UHGV virus genome: UHGV-1805464
Reading direction: 5' to 3' (one strand)
Length of the DNA: 15,792 nt
Origin: a virus
Every line of letters starts with the position of its first letter. Position 1 is the first letter of the stretch. Positions 4,934 to 15,792 of the stretch are shown in pieces. Below the pieces are notes generated by a model that saw only the letters and a list, made by a program, of their open reading frames with translations, was not told the origin of the DNA and ran no database searches. A program made the position numbers and the translations under genes.

Positions 4934-5845
4934 ATGGACCAAACCACCGACATTCAGGCTTCTGAAGAATTAACCCTGCCCGGCAATCATGCAGCGGCAT
5001 CTGCTGATGGCTTAGTTGTCGATAATGCCAACGACAACGCAGGTCAGGAAGAAGGCTTCGAGATTGTCCTGAAAGACGATGAGAAACCAAAACAAGACCC
5101 GGCAACTAATGCTGAATTTGCCCGTCGCCGCATCGAACGCAAACGCCAGCGCGAGCTTGAGCAGCAGATGGAAGCGGTTAAGCGTGGAGAGTTGCCGGAG
5201 CACCTGCGGGTGAACCCTGAGTTACCAAAACAACCAGACCCTAACGATTATCTTTCCGAAGACGCACTGGCTAAGTACGACTATGACCAGAGCCGCGCAC
5301 TGGCTGCCTTCCAGCATGCAAACAGTGAATGGCAGATCAAGGCTATGGACGCACGAAGCCAGGCTGTAGCCGAGCAGGGCCGCAAAACTCAGGAGTTCAC
5401 CCAGCAATCAGCGCAATACGTCGAGGCAGCCCGTAAGCACTACGACGCAGCGGAAAAGCTCAATATCCCTGACTATCAGGAGAAAGAGGATGCATTCATG
5501 CAACTGGTGCCGCCAGCAGTCGGTGCCGACATCATGCGCCTCTTCCCGGAGAAATCCGCTGCTCTCATGTATCACCTTGGTGCTAATCCTGAGAAGACAC
5601 GCCAGTTGCTGGCGATGGACGGGCAATCCGCGTTGATTGAACTCACTCGACTGTCAGAACGTTTAACTCTCAAGCCTCGAGCCAAACCTGTTTCAGAAGC
5701 CCCGCTACCTGATGAACCCATTCAGGGACACGCTGTTGCTGCAAATATCTCTGCGATTGAAAAGCAGATGGAAGCGGCAGCAAACAAAGGGGATGTAGAG
5801 ACGTACCGCAAGCTTAAGGCGCAACTGAATAAAGGAATTCGATAA
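4934..5845 (+). CDS. scaffolding protein (P22 gp8-like)
   Basis: 303 aa, the same length as P22 gp8. The N-terminus ([39 protein letters not shown]) and C-terminal coat-binding region ([13 protein letters not shown]) match recalled gp8. Stop overlaps the coat start (TAATG at 5843-5847). Confidence 0.93.
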
Positions 5846-7140
5846 TGGCATTAAATGAAGGTCAACTGGTCACGTATGCTCTGGATGAAATCATCGAAAC
5901 CGTCCAGAATCTGACGCCAATGGCGTCCAAAGTGACAAAATACACCCCTCCGGCAGAGTCCATGCAACGTTCAAGCAACACCGTGTGGATGCCTGTTGAG
6001 CAGGAAGCGCCAACTCAGACTGGCTGGGATTTAACTGGCAACGCAACCGGGATTCTGGAACTCTCCGTGAAATGCAACATGGGCGATCCGGATAACGATT
6101 TCTTCGAGCTTCGTGCAGATGACCTGCGTGATGAGCGTTCTTACCGTCGTCGCATCCAGGCATCCGCCAAAAAACTGGCGAATAACATTGAGTCAGCAAT
6201 TGCCAAACAGGCAACTGAAATGGGCTCGCTTGTTGTTCACGATACCCGCGCAATTGGTCCATCTACTGGCCTGTCTGGCTGGGATTTTGTGTCTGATGCA
6301 GAGCGCCTGATGTTCTCCCGTGAGCTAAACCGCGATATGGGCATCAGTTACTTCCTGAACCCTGACGATTACCGCAAAGCAGGCCGCAACCTGGTAGATG
6401 GTGACATCTTCGGGCGCGTTACTGAAGACGCGTATCACAACGGTACTATTCAGCGTCAGATTGCTGGCTTTGATGAAATTCTTCGCTCACCGAAACTTCC
6501 CGCAGTTACCAAGTCAACCGCTACTGGTGTAACTGTTTCTGGTGCGCAGAAGTTTAAGCCGCAGGCATACACCCTTGATACCGATGGTAACAAAGAGAAC
6601 GTCGATAACCGTGTTGCAACGGTGACCGTATCCTCCACCACCGGATTTAAGCGCGGCGACAAAATCAGCTTCACTGGTGTGAAATTCCTGTCTCAGATGG
6701 CGAAGAACGTGCTGACTGATGATGCGACTTTCTCAATCACCCGTGTGATCGATGGTACTCACATCGAAATCACGCCGAAGCCGATTGCGCTGGATGACGC
6801 GTCACTGACAAAAGAAGAGAAGGCTTACGCTAACGTAAACACCCATCTTGCTGATGCCACTCCGGTAAACGTTCTGAACGTGGCAACAACCACCGCTAAC
6901 GTGTTCTGGGCTGATGACTCAATCCGTCTGCTGTCTCAGCCGATCCCGGTAACCCATGAACTGTTTGCTGGCATGAAAACTTCTTCCTTCAGCATTCCTG
7001 GTATTGGTGTTAACGGCATCTTCGCAACGCAGGGTGATATCAATACTCTGTCTGGTAAGTGCCGTATTGCTGTGTGGTATTCAGCATGTGCTGTACGACC
7101 AGAGGCAATTGGTGTTGGTCTGCCTAACCAGACCGCGTGA
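5845..7140 (+). CDS. major capsid (coat) protein (P22 gp5-like, HK97 fold with insertion domain)
   Basis: 431 aa (P22 gp5 is 430 aa). MALNEGQ N-terminus, [24 protein letters not shown] and GIFATQGDI segments match recalled P22 coat. AAGGA Shine-Dalgarno upstream. Confidence 0.95.
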
Positions 7141-7148
7141 TAACCAGA

Positions 7149-7170
7149 GGGAGCTTCGGCTCCCTTTTTT
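7149..7170 (+). terminator. intrinsic terminator immediately after the coat gene
   Basis: Perfect 6-bp GC-rich stem GGGAGC (7149-7154) / GCTCCC (7159-7164) with a stable TTCG tetraloop, followed by a T6 run (7165-7170). It starts 9 nt after the coat stop. Confidence 0.75.
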
Positions 7171-7184
7171 ATCTGGAGACAAGC

Positions 7185-7445
7185 ATGACACACATGATCT
7201 TTCGTCATGGAGACATGAAGAAGTGGAAAGGCGTTGGATACGACTTTGAAATCGTGAAAGCCGAAGAGCTTCAGGAATATCTGGATGCTGGCTGGTTTGC
7301 ACATCCCGATGACCTTCTGAAGGATGTTGCAGAGTCAGAGTCAGAGCCAGAGCCAGAGCCAGAGCCAGAGCCAGAAGAAAAACAGCGTAAAAAGCCTGGT
7401 CGAAAACCTAAGGCGGCAGCAGATGAACCTGACAACGAAGGGTGA
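7185..7445 (+). CDS. hypothetical small protein (86 aa) with acidic SE/PE repeat linker and basic AT-hook-like tail
   Basis: ATG at 7185 is preceded by GGAG (7175-7178) with 6-nt spacing, just downstream of the coat terminator. The protein ends ...[37 protein letters not shown]. The ORF track starts this frame at GTG 7137, but that codon overlaps the coat stop and the terminator, so ATG 7185 is preferred. The 3' end overlaps the gp4 start by 23 nt. Confidence 0.55.
7332..7373 (+). repeat. in-frame tandem hexanucleotide repeat, (GAGTCA)2(GAGCCA)5
   Basis: Direct reading: two GAGTCA units (7332-7343) followed by five perfect GAGCCA units (7344-7373). It encodes the [14 protein letters not shown] tract of the 7185-7445 ORF. 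Confidence 0.9.
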
Positions 7446-7923
7446 TTTAGTCCTTGCAGCATTACGTAAGCTCGGTGTTGCATCAAATGCCACGTTAACC
7501 GATGTCGAACCGCAGTCTATGGAAGACGGCGTCAACGACCTTGAAATGATGATGGCTGAATGGCTTGGCGGTGATGCGTCACCTGGTATCAACGTTGGCT
7601 ACATTTTTGCTGATGCAGATGTTGCTCCGGATCCTGGCGATGAGCACGGATTATCAAATAACGCTATAAATGCCGTCATTTTCAACCTTGCCTGCCGCAT
7701 TGCTCCAGATTATGCGCTGGAAGCGCCAGCAAAACTTATAACCACTGCCAGATACGGGAAAGAGCGACTCGTCAAACTGTCTGCAATGGACAGAGCAAAA
7801 GCCGCTAAATGTAAGTCCGGTTATCCAAACCGTATGCCTGTTGGTAGCGGTAACCAGTTGGCGAAGTGGAATGGTTGGAATTACTTCCACCGGAAGGAAC
7901 CTTGCGATAACGGGGGCGAATAA
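7423..7923 (+). CDS. head-completion / tail accessory factor (P22 gp4-like)
   Basis: 166 aa from ATG 7423 ([33 protein letters not shown]...), the same length as P22 gp4 and with a closely similar recalled sequence ([14 protein letters not shown]). The longer ORF from 7324 (MLQSQSQSQ...) is just this frame read through the hexanucleotide repeat. Confidence 0.9.
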
Positions 7924-9342
7924 ATGCCGATTCAGCAACTTCCGCTTATGAAAGGTGTCGGCAAAGACTTTCGAAACGCCGACTATATCGACTATCTCCC
8001 AGTGAATATGCTGGCTACACCCAAAGAAATCCTGAACAGCAGCGGATATCTTCGCTCATTCCCGGGCATTGCCAAACGTTCTGATGTGAACGGTATATCT
8101 CGAGGCGTCGAGTACAACATGGCGCAGAGTGCTGTTTATCGCGTGTGTGGTGGCAAACTGTACAAAGGAGAAAGTGAAGTCGGTGATGTTGCCGGAAGTG
8201 GTCGCGTATCAATGGCGCATGGTCGGACATCACAGGCGGTAGGCGTTAATGGTCAACTGATCGAGTATCGTTATGATGGCACGGTTAAAACCGTCTCAAA
8301 CTGGCCTACGGACAGCGGATTCACGCAGTATGAGTTAGGTTCGGTTCGTGACATTACGCGCTTGCGTGGGCGTTATGCGTGGTCAAAAGACGGCACTGAT
8401 TCATGGTTTATCACTGACCTTGAAGACGAATCGCATCCTGACCGTTACAGCGCACAATATCGCGCAGAATCGCAGCCGGACGGCATCATCGGTATCGGCA
8501 CATGGCGAGACTTCATCGTCTGCTTTGGTTCATCAACGATTGAATATTTCTCCCTGACTGGTGCAACCACTGTTGGTGCCGCGTTGTATGTCGCACAGCC
8601 ATCGCTGATGGTGCAGAAAGGCATTGCCGGAACTTACTGCAAAACGCCGTTTGCTGATTCCTATGCGTTCATCAGCAATCCGGCAACGGGTGCGCCGTCT
8701 GTATACATCATCGGCTCCGGTCAGGTGTCACCAATCGCCAGCGCGAGCATTGAGAAAATCCTCCGCTCCTACACTGCTGATGAACTGGCTGATGGTGTGA
8801 TGGAATCGCTGCGATTTGATGCTCATGAGTTGCTGATTATCCACCTTCCGCGCCATGTTCTCGTGTACGACGCATCTTCAAGCGCCAATGGTCCGCAATG
8901 GTGTGTGCTGAAAACAGGTCTGTATGACGATGTGTACCGCGCTATCGACTTCATTTACGAAGGCAATCAGATAACGTGCGGCGATAAACTGGAGTCCGTG
9001 ACCGGGAAATTGCAATTCGACATCAGCAGCCAGTACGACAAGCAACAGGAACACCTGCTGTTTACTCCACTGTTCAAAGCGGATAACGCCAGAGTTTTCG
9101 ACCTTGAAGTTGAATCGTCAACTGGAGTTGCGCAGTACGCTGACCGCCTGTTCCTCTCTGCAACCACTGACGGCATCAATTACGGACGTGAGCAGATGAT
9201 TGAGCAGAATGAACCGTTCGTTTACGACAAACGTGTTTTGTGGAAGCGAGTCGGGCGCATCAGGAAAAATGTCGGCTTCAAATTGCGCGTTATCACGAAG
9301 TCACCTGTCACTCTGTCTGGCGCTCAGATAAGGATTGAGTAA
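7924..9342 (+). CDS. tail accessory factor / tail hub protein (P22 gp10-like)
   Basis: 472 aa, the same length as P22 gp10, with a near-identical recalled N-terminus ([46 protein letters not shown]). ATG directly follows the gp4 stop (TAAATG). Confidence 0.93.
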
Positions 9343-10043
9343 TGGCGGATTCGAATCTCAATGTGCCGGTAATCATTCAGGCTACACGGCTCGACACATC
9401 AGTCCTTCCACGCAATATCTTCTCGCAGTCGTATCTGCTTTACGTTATCGCACAGGGCACTGACGTTGGTAACGTGGCTAACAAGGCCAACGAGGCCGGA
9501 CAGGGCGCTTATGATGCACAGGTCAGGAATGATGAGCAGGATGTTATTCTGGTCGATCACGAAGAAAGAATTCGTCAGCTCCGCATCGACGTAGACGACC
9601 ATGAAATCCGTATTACTGCAAATACCAATGCAATCGCGTCGCTGGATGTCAGACTAACCACGGCTGAAGGTGAAATAGTCACCTTGCAGGCTGATGTCAG
9701 TGCTCTTGATGGTAGAGTGACGGAGGCTGAAGGAAATATTTCTGCATTGCAGAACGATTACGTATCGAAAACAGCAACAGCAACACAATCGCTGGCATCC
9801 CCCCTCAACGTAACAACATCCTATTCAGTCGGCGGCACCAAGGTTATCGGTGCTCGTCAGACAGGATGGACAGCGGCAACCGGAACGGCACTCCTCGGCG
9901 CATTCAACGCTAACCAGTCATACACTGTCGGCACTACGTACACGCAATCCGAAGTCGCAGCACTCGCTACAGGTTTGCAGCAGGCGCGGCAGCGTATTCT
10001 GGCGCTTGAAACGGCACTTAGATTACATGGGCTGATTGACTGA
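9342..10043 (+). CDS. tail needle / plug protein (P22 gp26-like trimeric coiled coil)
   Basis: 233 aa, the same length as P22 gp26. The N-terminus ([21 protein letters not shown]) and the heptad-repeat coiled-coil region match recalled gp26. Start overlaps the gp10 stop (TAATG); stop overlaps the next start (TGATG). Confidence 0.93.
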
Positions 10044-10498
10044 TGATTACATTCAAACCAACGCGAAACATCGACCTGATCGAAGCAGTAGGAAATCACC
10101 CTGACATCATCGCCGGGAGCAACAACGGTGATGGATACGACTACAAACCTGATTGCCGTTACTTTGAGGTGAACGTGCACGGTCAGTTTGGCGGCATTGT
10201 TTACTATCAGGAGATTCAGCCGCTGACATTCGATTGCCACGCCATGTACCTGCCAGAGATTCGCGGATTCAGCAAGGAAATCGGGCTGGCGTTCTGGCGA
10301 TACATTCTGACTAACACCACCGTTCAGTGCGTCACATCGTTCGCCGCACGCAAATTCCGCCACGGGCAGATTTACTGCGCAATGATTGGCCTTAAGCGTG
10401 TCGGAACCATCAAGAAATACTTCAAAGGCGTGGATGACGTGACTTTTTACAGCGCCACACGCGAAGAACTAATCGACTTCCTGAATCACGGGAGATAG
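10043..10498 (+). CDS. gene 14-position protein (putative DNA-ejection/assembly accessory protein)
   Basis: 151-aa ORF translationally coupled to gp26 (TGATG overlap) and ending 2 nt before gp7. It sits where gene 14 lies in P22-like phages. I could not confirm sequence similarity from memory, so the call rests on position. Confidence 0.6.
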   Translation: MITFKPTRNIDLIEAVGNHPDIIAGSNNGDGYDYKPDCRYFEVNVHGQFGGIVYYQEIQPLTFDCHAMYLPEIRGFSKEIGLAFWRYILTNTTVQCVTSFAARKFRHGQIYCAMIGLKRVGTIKKYFKGVDDVTFYSATREELIDFLNHGR

Positions 10499-10500
10499 CC

Positions 10501-11193
10501 ATGTTATATGCATTTAAGCTGGGCAGAAAACTGCGCGGCGAGGAACCTTATTGCCCTGAAAAAGGCGGGAAAGGTGGCAGCTCTGATAAAAGCGCAAAGT
10601 ATGCAGCAGAAGCTCAGAAGTATGCCGCAGACCTGCAAAATCAGCAGTGGCAGACGATCATGAAAAACCTTGCTCCGTTCACGCCGCTTGCGGAGCAGTA
10701 TGTTAACCAGCTTCAGAATCTTTCCAGTTTAGAAGGTCAGGGGCAGGCACTTAATCAGTATTACAATTCTCAGCAGTATAAAGACCTTGCAGGTCAGGCG
10801 CGTTACCAGAGTCTTGCTGCTGCGGAGGCGACGGGTGGACTTGGTTCGACAGCCACAAGCAATCAACTGGCTACGATCGCGCCGACTCTCGGTCAGTCTT
10901 GGTTATCAAACCAGATGAGCAATTACAACAATCTGGCAAACGTTGGGCTTGGTGCGCTGCAAGGTCAGGCAAACGCTGGGCAGACATACGCCAACAACAT
11001 GAGCAGCATTGCACAGCAAAGCGCAGCACTTGCCGCTGCTAATGCCAATAAACCATCAAGTCTTCAGACTGCAATTGGCGGTGGCACGTCTGGTGCGATT
11101 GCCGGTGCAGGTCTTGCCAGCCTTTTGGGAACATCAACGCCTTGGGGCGCTGGCATTGGTGCTGGTATCGGATTGCTTGGCTCGTTGTTTTAA
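10501..11193 (+). CDS. ejection (internal virion / DNA-transfer) protein, P22 gp7-like
   Basis: 230 aa (P22 gp7 is 229 aa). MLYAF.LGRKLRGEEP N-terminus and a Gly/Ala-rich hydrophobic C-terminal segment (GAIAGAGLASLLG...GIGAGIGLLGSLF). GGGAG Shine-Dalgarno with 7-nt spacing. Position matches P22 synteny. Confidence 0.8.
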   Translation: MLYAFKLGRKLRGEEPYCPEKGGKGGSSDKSAKYAAEAQKYAADLQNQQWQTIMKNLAPFTPLAEQYVNQLQNLSSLEGQGQALNQYYNSQQYKDLAGQARYQSLAAAEATGGLGSTATSNQLATIAPTLGQSWLSNQMSNYNNLANVGLGALQGQANAGQTYANNMSSIAQQSAALAAANANKPSSLQTAIGGGTSGAIAGAGLASLLGTSTPWGAGIGAGIGLLGSLF

Positions 11194-11202
11194 GGGGTAA
11201 TC

Positions 11203-12558
11203 ATGGCTACTTGGCAAGGAACAAACGGCGGATTGTTGGCTGGTATCGGCGGCGTAAACTCAAACGCTCCGAGCGTAAATGACATCGGCAATACGCTTCA
11301 GCTTATCAGGCAGAACAATGATATTGAGCGTTCAGGCGCTAACAATGTTGGGCTGACTGCTTTGCAAGGTCTTTCAGGTATTGCGGGTGTTTTTCAGCAG
11401 GAAAAGCAGGCTCAGCGGCAGAAAGAATTTCAGCAGGCGTACGCTAATGCTTATGCGTCTGGTGATCGCGGTGCTTTGCGTCAGTTGGCTACTCAATATC
11501 CAGACCAGATTGAATCCGTTCGTAAAGGCATGGGATTCATTGATGAAGAGCAGCGTAATTCTATCGGCACCTTAGCGGCTGGCGCACGCCTTGCGTCATC
11601 GTCTCCAGAAGCAATGCAATCATGGCTGCAAAACAACGCCAAGGAACTGACTCGCGTCGGTGTTGACCCTAATAACGTTGCTCAGATGTATCAGCAGAAC
11701 CCTTCAGGGTTTGGTGAGTTTGTTGATCACCTTGGGATGGCTGCTCTCGGTCCGATTGACTACTTCAATGTTCAGGACAAGATGGCTGGTCGTGAGATTG
11801 ACCGAGGCAGGCTGGCAGAGACAATCCGCAGCAATCAGGCCGGAGAGGCGCTAACAGCACGAGGTCAGAACATCACGATGCGCGGGCAGGATTTGGCAAT
11901 GCAGCGAGCGTCAACAAGAGGAACTGCTGGGAATGATGAGCGTACAGTTCAGTTATCAGATGGCAGAACTGTAACTGTCGGCGGGAAGCTTCATGGCGCT
12001 GGGGCTAATGCGTTCTACGAAGGCATCGACAACGAGGGGAATATGGTTCGCGTTCCTGCCAGTTCAATCGCAGCGCCTGCAACATCGTCTGCATCAGCAC
12101 AAAACTATGCCATGAAGAAGGATATCGACGCGATCGCAAATGCAGACGCTTCTGCTCTCGATTTCATGACAGGAATGACAGGCGGTGCAGGTAATCCAGC
12201 AATTGGTGCTGATGTTCGCAGCCGATTAACAGGAAAAGAGCAGCGCCAGTTATATAACTCAGCACAACGGATTCAGGGCAGAATGCAGAATCAGGGTGTG
12301 GCGGCAGCAAGGGACATGGGTGCCAGTGGTATTAACACTGTTGCAGAAGCGAAGATGTATTTTCAGGGGATGCCGCAGGTTGACTATTCAAGCCCGGAGG
12401 CTATGCAGCAGTCGATTCGTGAGATTCAGGAATACACCAACAATTACAACCAACAATATAACGTTAATGTTGGTAAATCTCAGCGGCATCAATCTCAACC
12501 TGCACAGGTATCACAGCCAGCAGCCAGCAGTAACTTTTCTTCACTATGGGGTGATTAA
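11203..12558 (+). CDS. ejection protein, P22 gp20-like
   Basis: 451 aa (P22 gp20 is about 471 aa). AAGGGG Shine-Dalgarno 5 nt upstream of the ATG. It sits between the gp7-like and gp16-like genes; stop overlaps the gp16 start (TAATG). Confidence 0.75.
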
Positions 12559-14555
12559 TGGCTAAAGCATGGAAAGATGTTATCGCCTCTCCACAGTATC
12601 AGGCGTTAGCACCAGAACAAAAAGCGCAGGCTCAGGAGCAATACTTCAATGAAGTCGTGGCCCCGCAAGCCGGAGAAAATGCAGAGCAGGCTAAGCAAGC
12701 TTTCTATGCTACCTATCCATTGCCATCTGTGCAGCCAGTGGAGACACAACAACCAGAAGCACAGCAACAACCACAGCAAAGTGGGTTTATGTCTGATCTT
12801 GGTGAAGCAGTAAAAGAGACTGGTCGTGGACTGGTGCAGGCTGGCGTGAACGTGGCAAACATACCTGCATCAGTTGCCGATGCTGTAACAAGCGCGGCGG
12901 CATGGGCTGGCGGTAAACTCGGCATTGGCGATGGTACATATCAACCAGCGCCACGAGTAACAACGCAGGGGTTAGAGCAGGACTTTGGTCTTCAGCAAGG
13001 CGCGCTCACTCCACAAACGACAGAGGGAAGGGTATTTGCTGAAGCATTGCCTTACCTCACTCCTGCTGGCGTTGAGAGAGCGGCAGCACAGGCACCAACA
13101 CTTGCTGGTCGAATTGCTCAGGGGGCAACACGACTTCTCGCAGAAAACGCAGTTGGATCACTTGCTGCAAATAGTGCGAAAGATGATGCGGAAGCACTCG
13201 CCACCGATTTAGGCGTTGGTGTGCTGGCTGGCGGTGCTATTAACGCTGCCGGACGTGGATTAGGTGCTGCTTATCGTGGCGTTCGTGGTGCTATTGCGCC
13301 AGAAGCGCAGCAGGCTATCAGATTTGCAGAGCGTGAAGGAGTTCCTCTGCACACCACAGACCTGTTACAGCCTACTTCCCGCGTCGGGAAAATGGCGCAG
13401 ACTACAGCAGAAAATATCCCCCTGGCTGGCACAAGCGGAATGAGAGCAACGCAACAGGAAGCGAGAAGCCAGTTGGTGCAGAGATTTGCTGATAAATTCG
13501 GTGAGTATGATCCAGCTGTTGTTATTGACAGCCTTAAAGCGAAAACATCAGGAATTCGTCGTGCTGCAGGGAACCGTCTTGAGCAGGTTCAGAATGCTAT
13601 GGCTGGAGTAAACATTCAGCCTGCGCGAGCAATTCAGCAGATTGATACAGAAATATCTAACCTGCAGAAGCTTGGTAAGGTTGCTGATAACGAGACTATT
13701 TCAAAACTTCAGTCATATCGTGATGAGCTTGTTCGCAATGCTGGTCCTGATGGTCCGGTAAATCTGGATCTGAAGCAATTAAGCGACCTGCGCAGCCAGT
13801 TCAGAATGGACGTGAAGGGTGAGCGACCAGTGTTACCAAACCGTTCCGATGCCGCCATTCAGCGCGTTTACAAGGCGATGACAGACGATATCAATGGTGC
13901 CATTGGTCAGAATCTTGGCAACGATACTCTCCGTAAATATCAGCAGGCCAATGCCGTCTACGCTGACGAAGCGGCGAAACTAAAGAATACCAGGCTGAAG
14001 AATGTTCTCATGAAAGGCGACCTGACGCCGGAAGTTGTCAACAACATACTATTCAGCAAGAACAAATCTGAAATTAAGGCTCTGTATAACTCAGTTGGTC
14101 GTGTTGGTAGGGTGCAAATGCGCAATGGCATCATTGGAAAGGCGATGGAGAAATCAGGTGGTTCCCCTGACCAGTTCCTTCGGCAGCTTAACATCATGCA
14201 AAACCAGACTGGAATAATATTTAAGGGGCAGGATGCTGCTTATCTGAAAGGATTGAAAAACTACCTGCAATCCACGCAGCAGGCTGCAAAATCGGCAGTA
14301 ACAACACCAACAGGGCAGCAAACCATCCCGTTCATTATCGGATATGGGACGGCAATGAACCCGGCGACAACTGGCGCAGCGGTAAGCTACGGACTTCTTA
14401 CTCGCGCCTATGAGAGCGAGCCATTCAGAAATGCAATGCTCCGAATGGCAAACACCCCACGCGGATCAACAGCGTTTGAGAAAGCCATGCAGCAGGCGCA
14501 AAAGGCCATTAACGCCCTGACTCAAGGTGCCAAGTCTGATGCGTTGTCAGAATAG
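12558..14555 (+). CDS. ejection protein, P22 gp16-like
   Basis: 665 aa, the last large gene of the structural block before the immI-like region (P22 gp16 is about 609 aa). GGGGTGA Shine-Dalgarno upstream. The call rests on synteny and size; ejection proteins are known to be variable. Confidence 0.75.
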   Translation: MAKAWKDVIASPQYQALAPEQKAQAQEQYFNEVVAPQAGENAEQAKQAFYATYPLPSVQPVETQQPEAQQQPQQSGFMSDLGEAVKETGRGLVQAGVNVANIPASVADAVTSAAAWAGGKLGIGDGTYQPAPRVTTQGLEQDFGLQQGALTPQTTEGRVFAEALPYLTPAGVERAAAQAPTLAGRIAQGATRLLAENAVGSLAANSAKDDAEALATDLGVGVLAGGAINAAGRGLGAAYRGVRGAIAPEAQQAIRFAEREGVPLHTTDLLQPTSRVGKMAQTTAENIPLAGTSGMRATQQEARSQLVQRFADKFGEYDPAVVIDSLKAKTSGIRRAAGNRLEQVQNAMAGVNIQPARAIQQIDTEISNLQKLGKVADNETISKLQSYRDELVRNAGPDGPVNLDLKQLSDLRSQFRMDVKGERPVLPNRSDAAIQRVYKAMTDDINGAIGQNLGNDTLRKYQQANAVYADEAAKLKNTRLKNVLMKGDLTPEVVNNILFSKNKSEIKALYNSVGRVGRVQMRNGIIGKAMEKSGGSPDQFLRQLNIMQNQTGIIFKGQDAAYLKGLKNYLQSTQQAAKSAVTTPTGQQTIPFIIGYGTAMNPATTGAAVSYGLLTRAYESEPFRNAMLRMANTPRGSTAFEKAMQQAQKAINALTQGAKSDALSE

Positions 14556-14624
14556 CTTCGCAAACACCAGGAACGTGCAAAAACCAAATATGTAGAACGC
14601 AATATTCAGCATATCTCTTTGCAT
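14547..14624 (-). CDS. possible 25-aa hydrophobic membrane peptide (MQRDMLNIAFYIFGFCTFLVFAKLF)
   Basis: Minus-strand ATG at 14624-14622 is preceded by a strong GGAGGA Shine-Dalgarno (14633-14628); stop TGA is at 14549-14547. It lies 20 nt downstream of mnt on the same strand, and its last 9 nt overlap the gp16 3' end convergently. It is too short for the ORF track, so it is predicted only from a manual read. Confidence 0.25.
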   Translation of the reverse strand: MQRDMLNIAFYIFGFCTFLVFAKLF

Positions 14625-14644
14625 AAATCCTCCGTAACTGATAG

Positions 14645-14905
14645 TTAGCTGCTGTCTTTTTTATATAGCTCCTTGAGCGTATCAAAGACAATTTTCTTAA
14701 CCATCTCAGATTGTTGTTCTGCCATACGCTCTGCATCGTCAATGTAAACAGATGCAGAGCTTTGTTTAGCCAATGATTCTTCAATCGCTGCAATTATCTC
14801 TGAGTTCAGCGACCTGTTATTCATCTTCGCACGCTGTTTAATTTTCGCGTGAAGTTCATGCGGAAGTCTCAAGTGAAACTGCGCCTCGTCGTATTTGCTG
14901 TACAT
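14645..14905 (-). CDS. mnt: Mnt-like ribbon-helix-helix repressor (Arc/MetJ family)
   Basis: 86 aa from the minus-strand ATG at 14905-14903: MYSKYDEAQFHLRLPHELHAKIKQRAKMNNRSLNSEIIAAIEESL...DAERMAEQQSEMVKKIVFDTLKELYKKDSS. The C-terminal half closely matches recalled P22 Mnt (DAERLADEQSELVKKMVFDTLKDLYKK) and the N-terminal RHH segment is related. The 219-aa ORF-track call is an artefactual upstream extension. Confidence 0.85.
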   Translation of the reverse strand: MYSKYDEAQFHLRLPHELHAKIKQRAKMNNRSLNSEIIAAIEESLAKQSSASVYIDDAERMAEQQSEMVKKIVFDTLKELYKKDSS

Positions 14906-15040
14906 CCTTGATGCCTCACCAGTTGGGTGGAATGGCATCGTAAAACCTACTGTACAAATCAACAATCGCACCGTTTCGGTATGTAACAAATTCCAACCGT
15001 AGCCATGCTGCGGCGATTCCTTGTATCTGGAGCAAATTAA
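14906..15040. promoter_or_regulatory. divergent control region between mnt and the tailspike gene (candidate promoters and Mnt operator)
   Basis: 135-bp AT-richer intergenic spacer between the divergent mnt (-) and tailspike (+) starts. It contains an imperfect inverted repeat, CACCAGTTGGGTG, at about 14917-14929 next to the mnt start. GGAG (15025-15028) lies about 12 nt upstream of the tailspike ATG. No promoter hexamers could be assigned confidently. Confidence 0.35.
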
Positions 15041-15679
15041 ATGACAGACATTACAGCCAATGTGATTGTATCTATGCCTTCGCAACTCTTCACTATGGCT
15101 CGTTCTTTTAAAGCCGTAGCCAATGGAAAAATTTATATCGGTAAAATTGACACTGACCCGGTAAATCCTGAAAACCAGATTCGGGTTTATGTGGAAAACG
15201 AAGACGGTTCTCACGTTCCTGTTTCGCAACCAATTATCATTAACGCTGCTGGTTATCCTGTATATAACGGGCAGATTGCCAAGTTCGTAACTGTGCAAGG
15301 CCATTCTATGGCTGTTTATGATGCATACGGTGCTCAGCAGTTTTATTTTCCGAATGTTCTGAAGTACGATCCTGACAGATTGCGACAGGATTTAGCGCTT
15401 CCAACAGGCGCTGAGCTTGTAGGCGTGCAACCACAAGGAAATCTTTCGCAAGTCATTCAGTTTGTATCTCCAGAGCAGTTTGGCGCCATCGGAGATGGTA
15501 CGGTTCATCCATTATCTGAGCGTTATGCGACTCTTGCAGCAGCGCAGGCTGTATACCCATTCGTAACATCTCTGACCCAGACAATTGACTGGGCTGCATG
15601 CCAGTTGGCAGAAAACCTTAACAGGAAGGTTAGGCCCATTCATGTTGCCAAGTTTAAAAAATATCACCTTGGTGACTAA
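15041..15679 (+). CDS. tailspike protein, truncated: P22 gp9-type head-binding N-terminal domain plus the start of a receptor-binding domain (212 aa)
   Basis: [11 protein letters not shown]...[27 protein letters not shown]...VENEDGSHV...IINAAG...[13 protein letters not shown]...NVLKYDPD matches the recalled P22 tailspike N-terminal domain. Residues around 150-195 ([29 protein letters not shown]...IDWAACQ) look like the beginning of a beta-helix receptor-binding domain, but the frame stops at TAA 15677-15679. Confidence 0.8.
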
Positions 15680-15681
15680 TG

Positions 15682-15713
15682 CCAGTCAGTTAAGCAACTG
15701 ACTGGCTCTTTTT
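15682..15713 (+). terminator. strong intrinsic terminator 2 nt after the tailspike stop
   Basis: Perfect 10-bp stem CCAGTCAGTT (15682-15691) / AACTGACTGG (15696-15705) with a 4-nt loop AAGC, followed by CTC and a T5 run (15709-15713). Confidence 0.8.
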
Positions 15714-15792
15714 CGGGGCTGTGGGGTATTTCCAGGGCCTCTCCTTTACCACTCTCGGGAAGGCCCTTTCCCTTCTTGTCGGTAATTTCACA

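Follow-up and report, generated by a model that had tools for sequence, protein, structure and literature searches.

A P22-like prophage tailspike gene apparently interrupted by IS4 in Escherichia coli

The tailspike frame and its surroundings

The stretch of DNA analysed here, referred to as the window, comprises 15,792 nucleotides of the virus genome UHGV-1805464. Close to its right-hand end, an open reading frame on the plus strand (15041-15679) opens with ATG, runs for 212 codons to the residues ...KFKKYHLGD and closes with a TAA at 15677-15679. It lies where the tailspike gene lies in P22-like phages, after gp7, gp20, gp16 and a gene of the Arc/Mnt family. The last of these sits on the minus strand between gp16 and the tailspike frame (14645-14905), matches PF03869 (Arc) and PF11423 (Repressor_Mnt), was also called at 9605-9865 in a second contig, L003 (window positions are higher by 5040), and is annotated in E. 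coli genomes as 'Arc family DNA-binding protein'. Such a gene is the usual neighbour of the tailspike in P22-like phages. A 219-aa reading frame on the same strand (14645-15304), which overlaps the tailspike start, was set aside as an over-extension of the Arc/Mnt gene, the real gene making up only its 3' third (14645-14905 or 14645-14938, giving 86 or 97 aa depending on the gene caller).

P22-like tailspikes, such as P22 gp9, Sf6 gp14 and HK620 gp9, combine an N-terminal head-binding domain with a trimeric beta-helix receptor-binding domain. The window frame shares the first of these: residues 1-113 (15041-15379) match PF09008 (Head_binding) over profile positions 1-113 of 113 with E = 2.3e-67 in Pfam, and the same residues match the solved N-termini of the Sf6 and P22 tailspikes (PDB matches 7sg7, 2xc1 and 1lkt). 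A preliminary description of this DNA had recognised a P22-type head-binding domain in the first 115 or so residues, in good agreement with these matches. It had also placed the opening of a beta-helix at about residues 150-195. Here, residues 141-203 (15461-15649), which contain the motif FGAIGDG, aligned in phmmer searches to the N-terminal start of 4ru4 gp49 (residues 14-73, E = 7.7e-15) and to 4ru5 gp27 (E = 4.4e-13). From the aligned chain positions we ourselves read this segment as the first turns or cap, that is, the probable opening, of the receptor-binding beta-helix domain.

Unlike P22-like tailspikes, the window gene is broken after codon 212, and its product is without nearly all of the receptor-binding domain. 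The C-terminal trimeric domain that brings these proteins to about 600-700 aa is missing, and intact homologues of the present frame are 659 aa long, so that the earlier impression of a truncated gene is borne out. The coding part (15041-15676, plus strand) aligns, free of indels, along the first 636 nt of intact tailspike genes, which are 1980 nt long, and thus corresponds to codons 1-212 of 659. On sequence grounds, the frame at 15041-15679 reads as a fragment of a tailspike gene and not as a functional member of the tailspike family.

Beyond the stop codon lies a hairpin with a T-run, TCTTTTTC (15681-15714, plus strand). A terminator scan found a perfect hairpin at 15681-15706, with an 11-bp stem (GCCAGTCAGTT/AACTGACTGGC) and the loop AAGC, followed by TCTTTTT. 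Its predicted minimum free energy is -18.7 kcal/mol (z = -2.05 against shuffled sequences), and with six GC pairs among its 11 bp and the T-run that follows, it has the form of an intrinsic terminator, i.e. a GC-rich hairpin and a run of T. Both a tailspike frame of about 212 codons and a terminator-like hairpin after it, as first described, are therefore present; the stem is 11 bp and begins 1 nt past the stop, where 10 bp and 2 nt had been given, a trivial difference.

The end of an IS4 element at the stop codon

From 15677 to the end of the window, all 116 nt are 100% identical to the IS4 copy of phage PhiR70_1 (L002 2502-2617), annotated there as 'transposase InsG for IS4'. A search of the phage collection aligned the final 117 nt of the window with this copy at 100%. 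This stretch is the right-hand end of the element, with the transposase gene on the minus strand, and the contig ends inside it. When 15380-15792 was compared by BLAST with complete E. coli genomes, the query split into two unrelated parts: up to 15676 it matched genes for 'phage head-binding domain-containing protein' (98.7% in strain EC2, for example), and from about 15677 its matches were 'IS4-like element IS4 family transposase' genes in their thousands, found in up to 32 places per genome. A multiple alignment put the switch from tailspike to IS4 between 15676 and 15677.

The reference copy in PhiR70_1 (L002 2502-3927) is 1426 bp long. It starts with TAATGCCAGTCAGTTAAG and ends with CTTAACTGATCGGCATTA, the reverse complement of which matches the former at 16 of 18 positions; it is flanked by a 12-bp duplication, CCCCGAAGGGCC, and the gene for its 442-aa InsG stops 14 nt short of the end to which the window corresponds. 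The same 18-bp terminal inverted repeat, TAATGCCAGTCAGTTAAG, which begins with TAATGCC, occupies 15677-15694 of the window, and the TAA with which it opens (15677-15679) serves the tailspike frame as its stop codon. The opposite end, CTTAACTGATCGGCATTA, lies at 96-113 of contig L013, to which we return below. On the minus strand, 15690-15792 holds the 3' end of insG, namely the last 33 codons and the stop, which are all that the window contains of the gene; in IS4 as known, InsG is a DDE-type transposase of 442 aa encoded in a single long ORF without a frameshift. The translation of 15690-15791, ...VKLPTRRERAFPRVVKERPWKYPTAPKKSQSVA followed by the stop, is identical to the C-terminus of the annotated InsG.

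In these 116 identical nucleotides, in the terminal repeat and in the InsG C-terminus, the element is the same as E. coli IS4 (IS4 family, IS4 subgroup). Over the two ends seen (116 nt in the window and 113 nt in L013) no difference from annotated IS4 was detectable, the left end in L013 departing from the PhiR70_1 copy at 3 of 114 positions. As far as these ends tell, the element is IS4, a known element in known behaviour, and nothing about it is new.

The hairpin next to the stop codon is part of this element. It coincides with IS4 nt 5-30 (nt 5-38 with the T-run): the left arm belongs to the terminal repeat, and loop and right arm overlie the insG stop and last codons. The exact hairpin 33-mer recurs in L002 and L015-L018, each time at the right end of IS4, as well as in the junction contigs L003-L005; in L001 and L007-L011, where the tailspike is intact, it was not found. 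In the full-length gene, as seen in L007, the native frame ends ...KPTL-TAA after codon 659 and has a different hairpin behind it, AGGCCCttacGGGCCT, with TATTT. Since the window hairpin is present at IS4 ends, including unrelated IS4 sites, is absent from intact loci and differs from the native one, it is not the native tailspike terminator. The stop codon and 'perfect terminator', taken at first for the gene's own 3' end, are instead IS4 nt 1-3 and nt 5-30. When the literature was searched for a terminator role of this IS4 end, nothing specific came up. As for the native hairpin, AGGCCCttacGGGCCT is a short GC hairpin at L007 11978-12000, between the tailspike stop and the convergent gtrC, and is likely to act as a terminator in both directions.

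The intact allele and the far side of IS4

Contigs of prophages with an intact tailspike gene, among them L007 (Logan SRR7693645) and L008 (ENA ERZ27246820), match window positions 5041-15676 at 100%: over 10,636 nt there are 0 mismatches and 0 gaps, and the identity stops exactly at 15676. Alignment to related prophages, suggested earlier as a check, thus sets the breakpoint where tailspike identity ends (15676) and IS4 begins (15677). These contigs encode the 659-aa tailspike P0041, and the 212-aa window product is identical to its residues 1-212. P0041 is one member of a 53-member 90% cluster of 659-aa proteins, retrieved with the C-terminal 447 aa of the EC2 tailspike as the protein query. 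In L007, the 659-codon tailspike gene is followed by the AGGCCCttacGGGCCT hairpin, convergent gtrC-gtrB-gtrA, the integrase and host genes; with its 659 aa and the gtrCBA and integrase genes after it, the intact allele resembles other P22-like tailspike loci. Unlike those of P22-like tailspikes, its receptor-binding domain has no Pfam match and no close solved structure past the first ~60 residues.

That domain has a wider distribution of its own. Residues 213-659 recur at 33-91% identity behind a different N-terminal module, PF18668, in proteins P0002-P0037 from Enterobacter, Obesumbacterium, Cronobacter, Hafnia and Mixta, a pattern that we read as receptor-binding domain modules swapping between phage types. 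In E. coli EC2 (NZ_CP058571; L001 2170-3526), an intact tailspike gene and gtr genes are kept, and directly upstream of the Arc gene, in place of the ejection genes gp16, gp20 and gp7, stands an IS1 transposase with fragments of a P63C-domain gene and of a recombinase gene on its flanks; judging from this gene content, the EC2 locus is a prophage remnant that has retained its tailspike.

An insertion of IS4 makes a specific prediction about the other side of the element, and we set it out in advance: the IS4 left end, a duplication of 11-13 bp, and then the tailspike from codon 213 on, with the first in-frame start at a TTG, codon 217. Eight candidate C-terminal proteins were built from P0041, and one of them, the 443-aa product starting at TTG-217, exists in the protein collection as P0057, encoded on contig L013. 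This contig reads ...CTTAACTGATCGGCATTA, then CACCTTGGTGAC, then AACTATCTCAAG..., that is, the IS4 left end (nt 1-113), the duplication, and the tailspike from codon 213 onward, followed by gtrCBA. The left copy of the 12-bp repeat CACCTTGGTGAC lies at 15665-15676 in the window and the other at 114-125 in L013; in the intact allele the sequence occurs once only (L008 10625-10636). L013 114-4419 is 100% identical to L008 10625-14930. Moreover, L013 comes from the same ENA assembly, ERZ27261212, as L003, which is 100% identical to window positions 5041-15792. Both are metagenome assembly contigs, and the IS4 interior lies past their ends. What lies to the right of the window, for which the preliminary description had proposed a search, is accordingly the remaining tailspike and gtrCBA, past IS4.

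Because the 12 bp are doubled at the junctions and single in the intact allele, the event was a simple transposition without deletion. We hold it to be nearly certain that IS4 inserted in this way into the tailspike gene of an E. coli P22-like prophage, after codon 212, and the matching 12-bp duplication points to a single, full-length IS4 between the two junctions. The element (1426 bp in the reference copy, with insG as its sole gene and 18-bp terminal repeats) would have transposed between nt 636 and 637 of the 1980-nt gene, duplicating the 12-bp target CACCTTGGTGAC. With insG antiparallel to the tailspike, the IS4 right end, TAATGCC..., abuts codon 212, its nt 1-3 (TAA) closing the frame and its nt 5-38, hairpin and T-run, mimicking an intrinsic terminator, and the other 447 tailspike codons and the convergent gtrC-gtrB-gtrA genes (O-antigen modification) are intact past IS4. 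The insertion would also be evolutionarily very recent, since the 10.6-kb flank shows zero differences from the intact prophages.

The reading first proposed was that an internal deletion had brought the front portion of the tailspike gene up against the gene's native 3' end and terminator, and a frame about one third of the normal length, followed by a terminator-like hairpin, is what such a deletion would leave. Its probability now seems negligible. The sequence past 15676 is IS4 and not tailspike, the native 3' end (KPTL-TAA and AGGCCCttacGGGCCT) is unrelated to the window hairpin, that hairpin is absent from all intact loci, and codons 213-659 are found beyond IS4, behind the 12-bp duplication, with nothing deleted.

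The other explanation offered at the outset was a genuine short adaptor, consisting of a head-binding domain only and recruiting a separately encoded receptor-binding protein. Head-binding domains are indeed modular, and the same receptor-binding domain stands behind PF18668 N-termini in other genera. The test named for it was the existence of conserved full-length homologues of about 212 aa, and when this was run, no independent one appeared: the protein's 90% cluster has three members, all truncations, namely the protein itself, a fragment of 81 aa from a contig edge and a 226-aa product that IS1 cuts short. In addition, the frame ends within a domain that runs on unbroken in the DNA-identical intact allele, and its stop codon comes from IS4; all contigs encoding the 212-aa protein break off inside this element. 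We therefore give a short adaptor practically no credence.

The left junction, from tailspike into the IS4 right end, is present base for base in ENA assemblies ERZ27261212, ERZ27260740 and ERZ28658727 and in Logan ERR1137174, although some of these assemblies may come from overlapping samples. A sequencing error at the stop codon, which had been named as a way for the truncation to be spurious, is not the explanation, with the junction identical in at least 4 other public contigs. These contigs end 26-116 nt inside IS4, and they break there because short-read assemblers stop at multi-copy repeats. Among 5,426 complete E. coli RefSeq genomes, none has a place covering at least 80% of 15380-15792, so the source strain is not among them; exact-pattern searches gave 0 hits for the left junction in genome_contigs and 0 hits for the predicted right junction in JGI metagenome_contigs. 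Other candidates for the two halves of the IS4 allele were rejected. P0052 (471 aa) and P0055 (81 aa), which a single E. coli isolate supplied, are contig-edge fragments, since P0052 runs uninterrupted across the insertion site; P0043 (350 aa), considered as a C-terminal partner, differs from the window allele at 4 residues.

These data bear on whether the junction could be an assembly artefact, a chimeric contig that joined the tailspike to an IS4 copy from elsewhere in the community or genome. The window does end inside a multi-copy repeat, where metagenome assemblers can make chimeras, and no isolate genome with the junction was found. Against this, the join shows no sequence common to tailspike and IS4 from which a chimera could arise, the junction recurs unchanged in at least 4 contigs from different assemblies and assemblers (k119, 'METAG-scaffold' and Logan), the reciprocal junction carries a precise 12-bp duplication, which is a signature of transposition, and the target fits the IS4 site pattern described below. 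An artefact of this kind is most improbable, and a one-off chimera as the source of the junction can, on these sequences, be considered excluded.

A rearrangement associated with IS4, in which the junctions stem from different IS4 copies or from a flanking inversion or deletion, must also be weighed: the IS4 interior lies beyond the contig ends, and IS elements are known to mediate such events (PMC5009759). However, opposite ends of IS4 stand at the two junctions, each next to one and the same 12-bp duplication in its correct orientation, the flanks match the intact allele at 100% and adjoin exactly in it, and no IS4 event was recorded among 98 IS recombinations in E. coli mutation-accumulation lines (PMC5009759). 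We regard a rearrangement as highly unlikely and retain the simple insertion.

Target site, other insertion sequences and consequences for the prophage

The insertion site itself has the properties of an IS4 target. IS4 duplicates about one helical turn of its target (12 bp in L002), the duplication given for the IS4 family is ~10 bp (PMC2266710), and CACCTTGGTGAC is 12 bp. At the window site, as in 5 further IS4 insertions, the duplication has an A-rich tract, AAAAT(G/A)(T/G), directly on its 5' side, so that all six right-end flanks show an A-rich tract and then a quasi-palindromic, duplicated core of ~12 bp. A target preference of IS4 is seen directly in this small sample of six sites, and the window insertion, which has the 12-bp duplication, A-rich arm and quasi-palindromic core of other IS4 copies, agrees with the strong target-arm specificity described for IS4-subgroup elements (PMC2266710). 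BLAST alignments of IS4 copies (L002, L015-L018) ran 18-27 nt past the IS end into the window tailspike (15649-15676), an overrun due to the A-rich tract and quasi-palindromic core that IS4 sites have in common. IS4 moves only seldom in E. coli, accounting for 8 of the 758 new insertions recorded in mutation-accumulation lines (PMC5009759).

Other insertion sequences were observed at and near this locus. In a related tailspike gene with ~95% nucleotide identity (L012 5001-5705, Logan ERR1334287), the frame is cut after nt 676 by an IS1 end, GGTGATGCTGCCAACTTACTGATTTAGTG, which agrees at 28 of 29 positions with the inverted repeat that adjoins the annotated IS1 transposase of L001. This cut lies 40 nt downstream of the IS4 site and yields the 226-aa product P0056; we read it as an IS insertion that struck this short part of the gene independently. 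The tailspike of L014 (ENA ERZ28661777), split into 296 and 356 aa (P0058), was considered as a third inactivation, by frameshift, and dismissed, there being a run of 15 N in the scaffold (9951-9965). The IS1 end seen in L012 also occurs between the integrase and gtrA, ~108 nt upstream from where gtrA starts (L013 4302-4419, L008 14813, L014 13904). It is thus present in the window's own assembly and in L008, with its intact tailspike, and is absent from L007 (compare 14812/14813). This distribution suggests a stepwise gain of insertion sequences, first IS1 near gtrA and then IS4 in the tailspike. The IS1 near gtrA may affect the gtr promoter.

P22 heads without tailspikes are stable and cannot adsorb. 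On induction, the prophage described here would be expected to make only the 212-aa fragment, i.e. the head-binding domain and ~100 further residues, without the receptor-binding beta-helix, and its particles, having no functional tailspikes, would likely be unable to adsorb. The lysogen would then release non-infectious particles, and would stay immune and retain the O-antigen modification that gtr provides. It might be that the fragment can still fill the tailspike sites of the tail and act as a dominant negative. The IS4 hairpin and T-run (plus strand) would probably terminate transcripts entering the element from the late operon; polarity on other genes is no issue, because the tailspike is last in the late operon and the gtr genes are convergent.

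One could imagine that the truncation is kept by selection, with the fragment poisoning the tail assembly of resident or superinfecting P22-like phages by filling tailspike sites and bringing no receptor-binding domain to them. If this were true, the nearby IS1 hit in L012 would reflect selection for the same truncation and not IS target preference, but we consider such selection very unlikely. The simple insertion of IS4 corresponds to what is seen in the IS-mediated inactivation of prophage genes during decay or domestication, where an IS lies in a structural gene of an otherwise intact-looking prophage; as in prophage decay generally, a second IS (IS1, upstream of gtrA) is found in the same lineage and an independent IS1 hit in a tailspike from another sample. 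It differs from such decay not in kind, but in that IS4 is one of the rarely transposing IS of E. coli. A literature search for a described case of IS4 in a tailspike gene returned nothing specific.

What lies at this locus is routine prophage decay and not a new kind of protein. In annotation, the frame should be called a tailspike pseudogene that IS4 interrupts, and the hairpin should be assigned to the element and not to the phage as a terminator; the locus offers a clean example of how a contig ending in an IS can mimic a neat 'gene plus terminator'. With its zero-mismatch flanks and intact sister allele, it represents a datable, very recent inactivation of a prophage in gut E. coli, which may be of some minor use in studies of IS dynamics in microbiomes.
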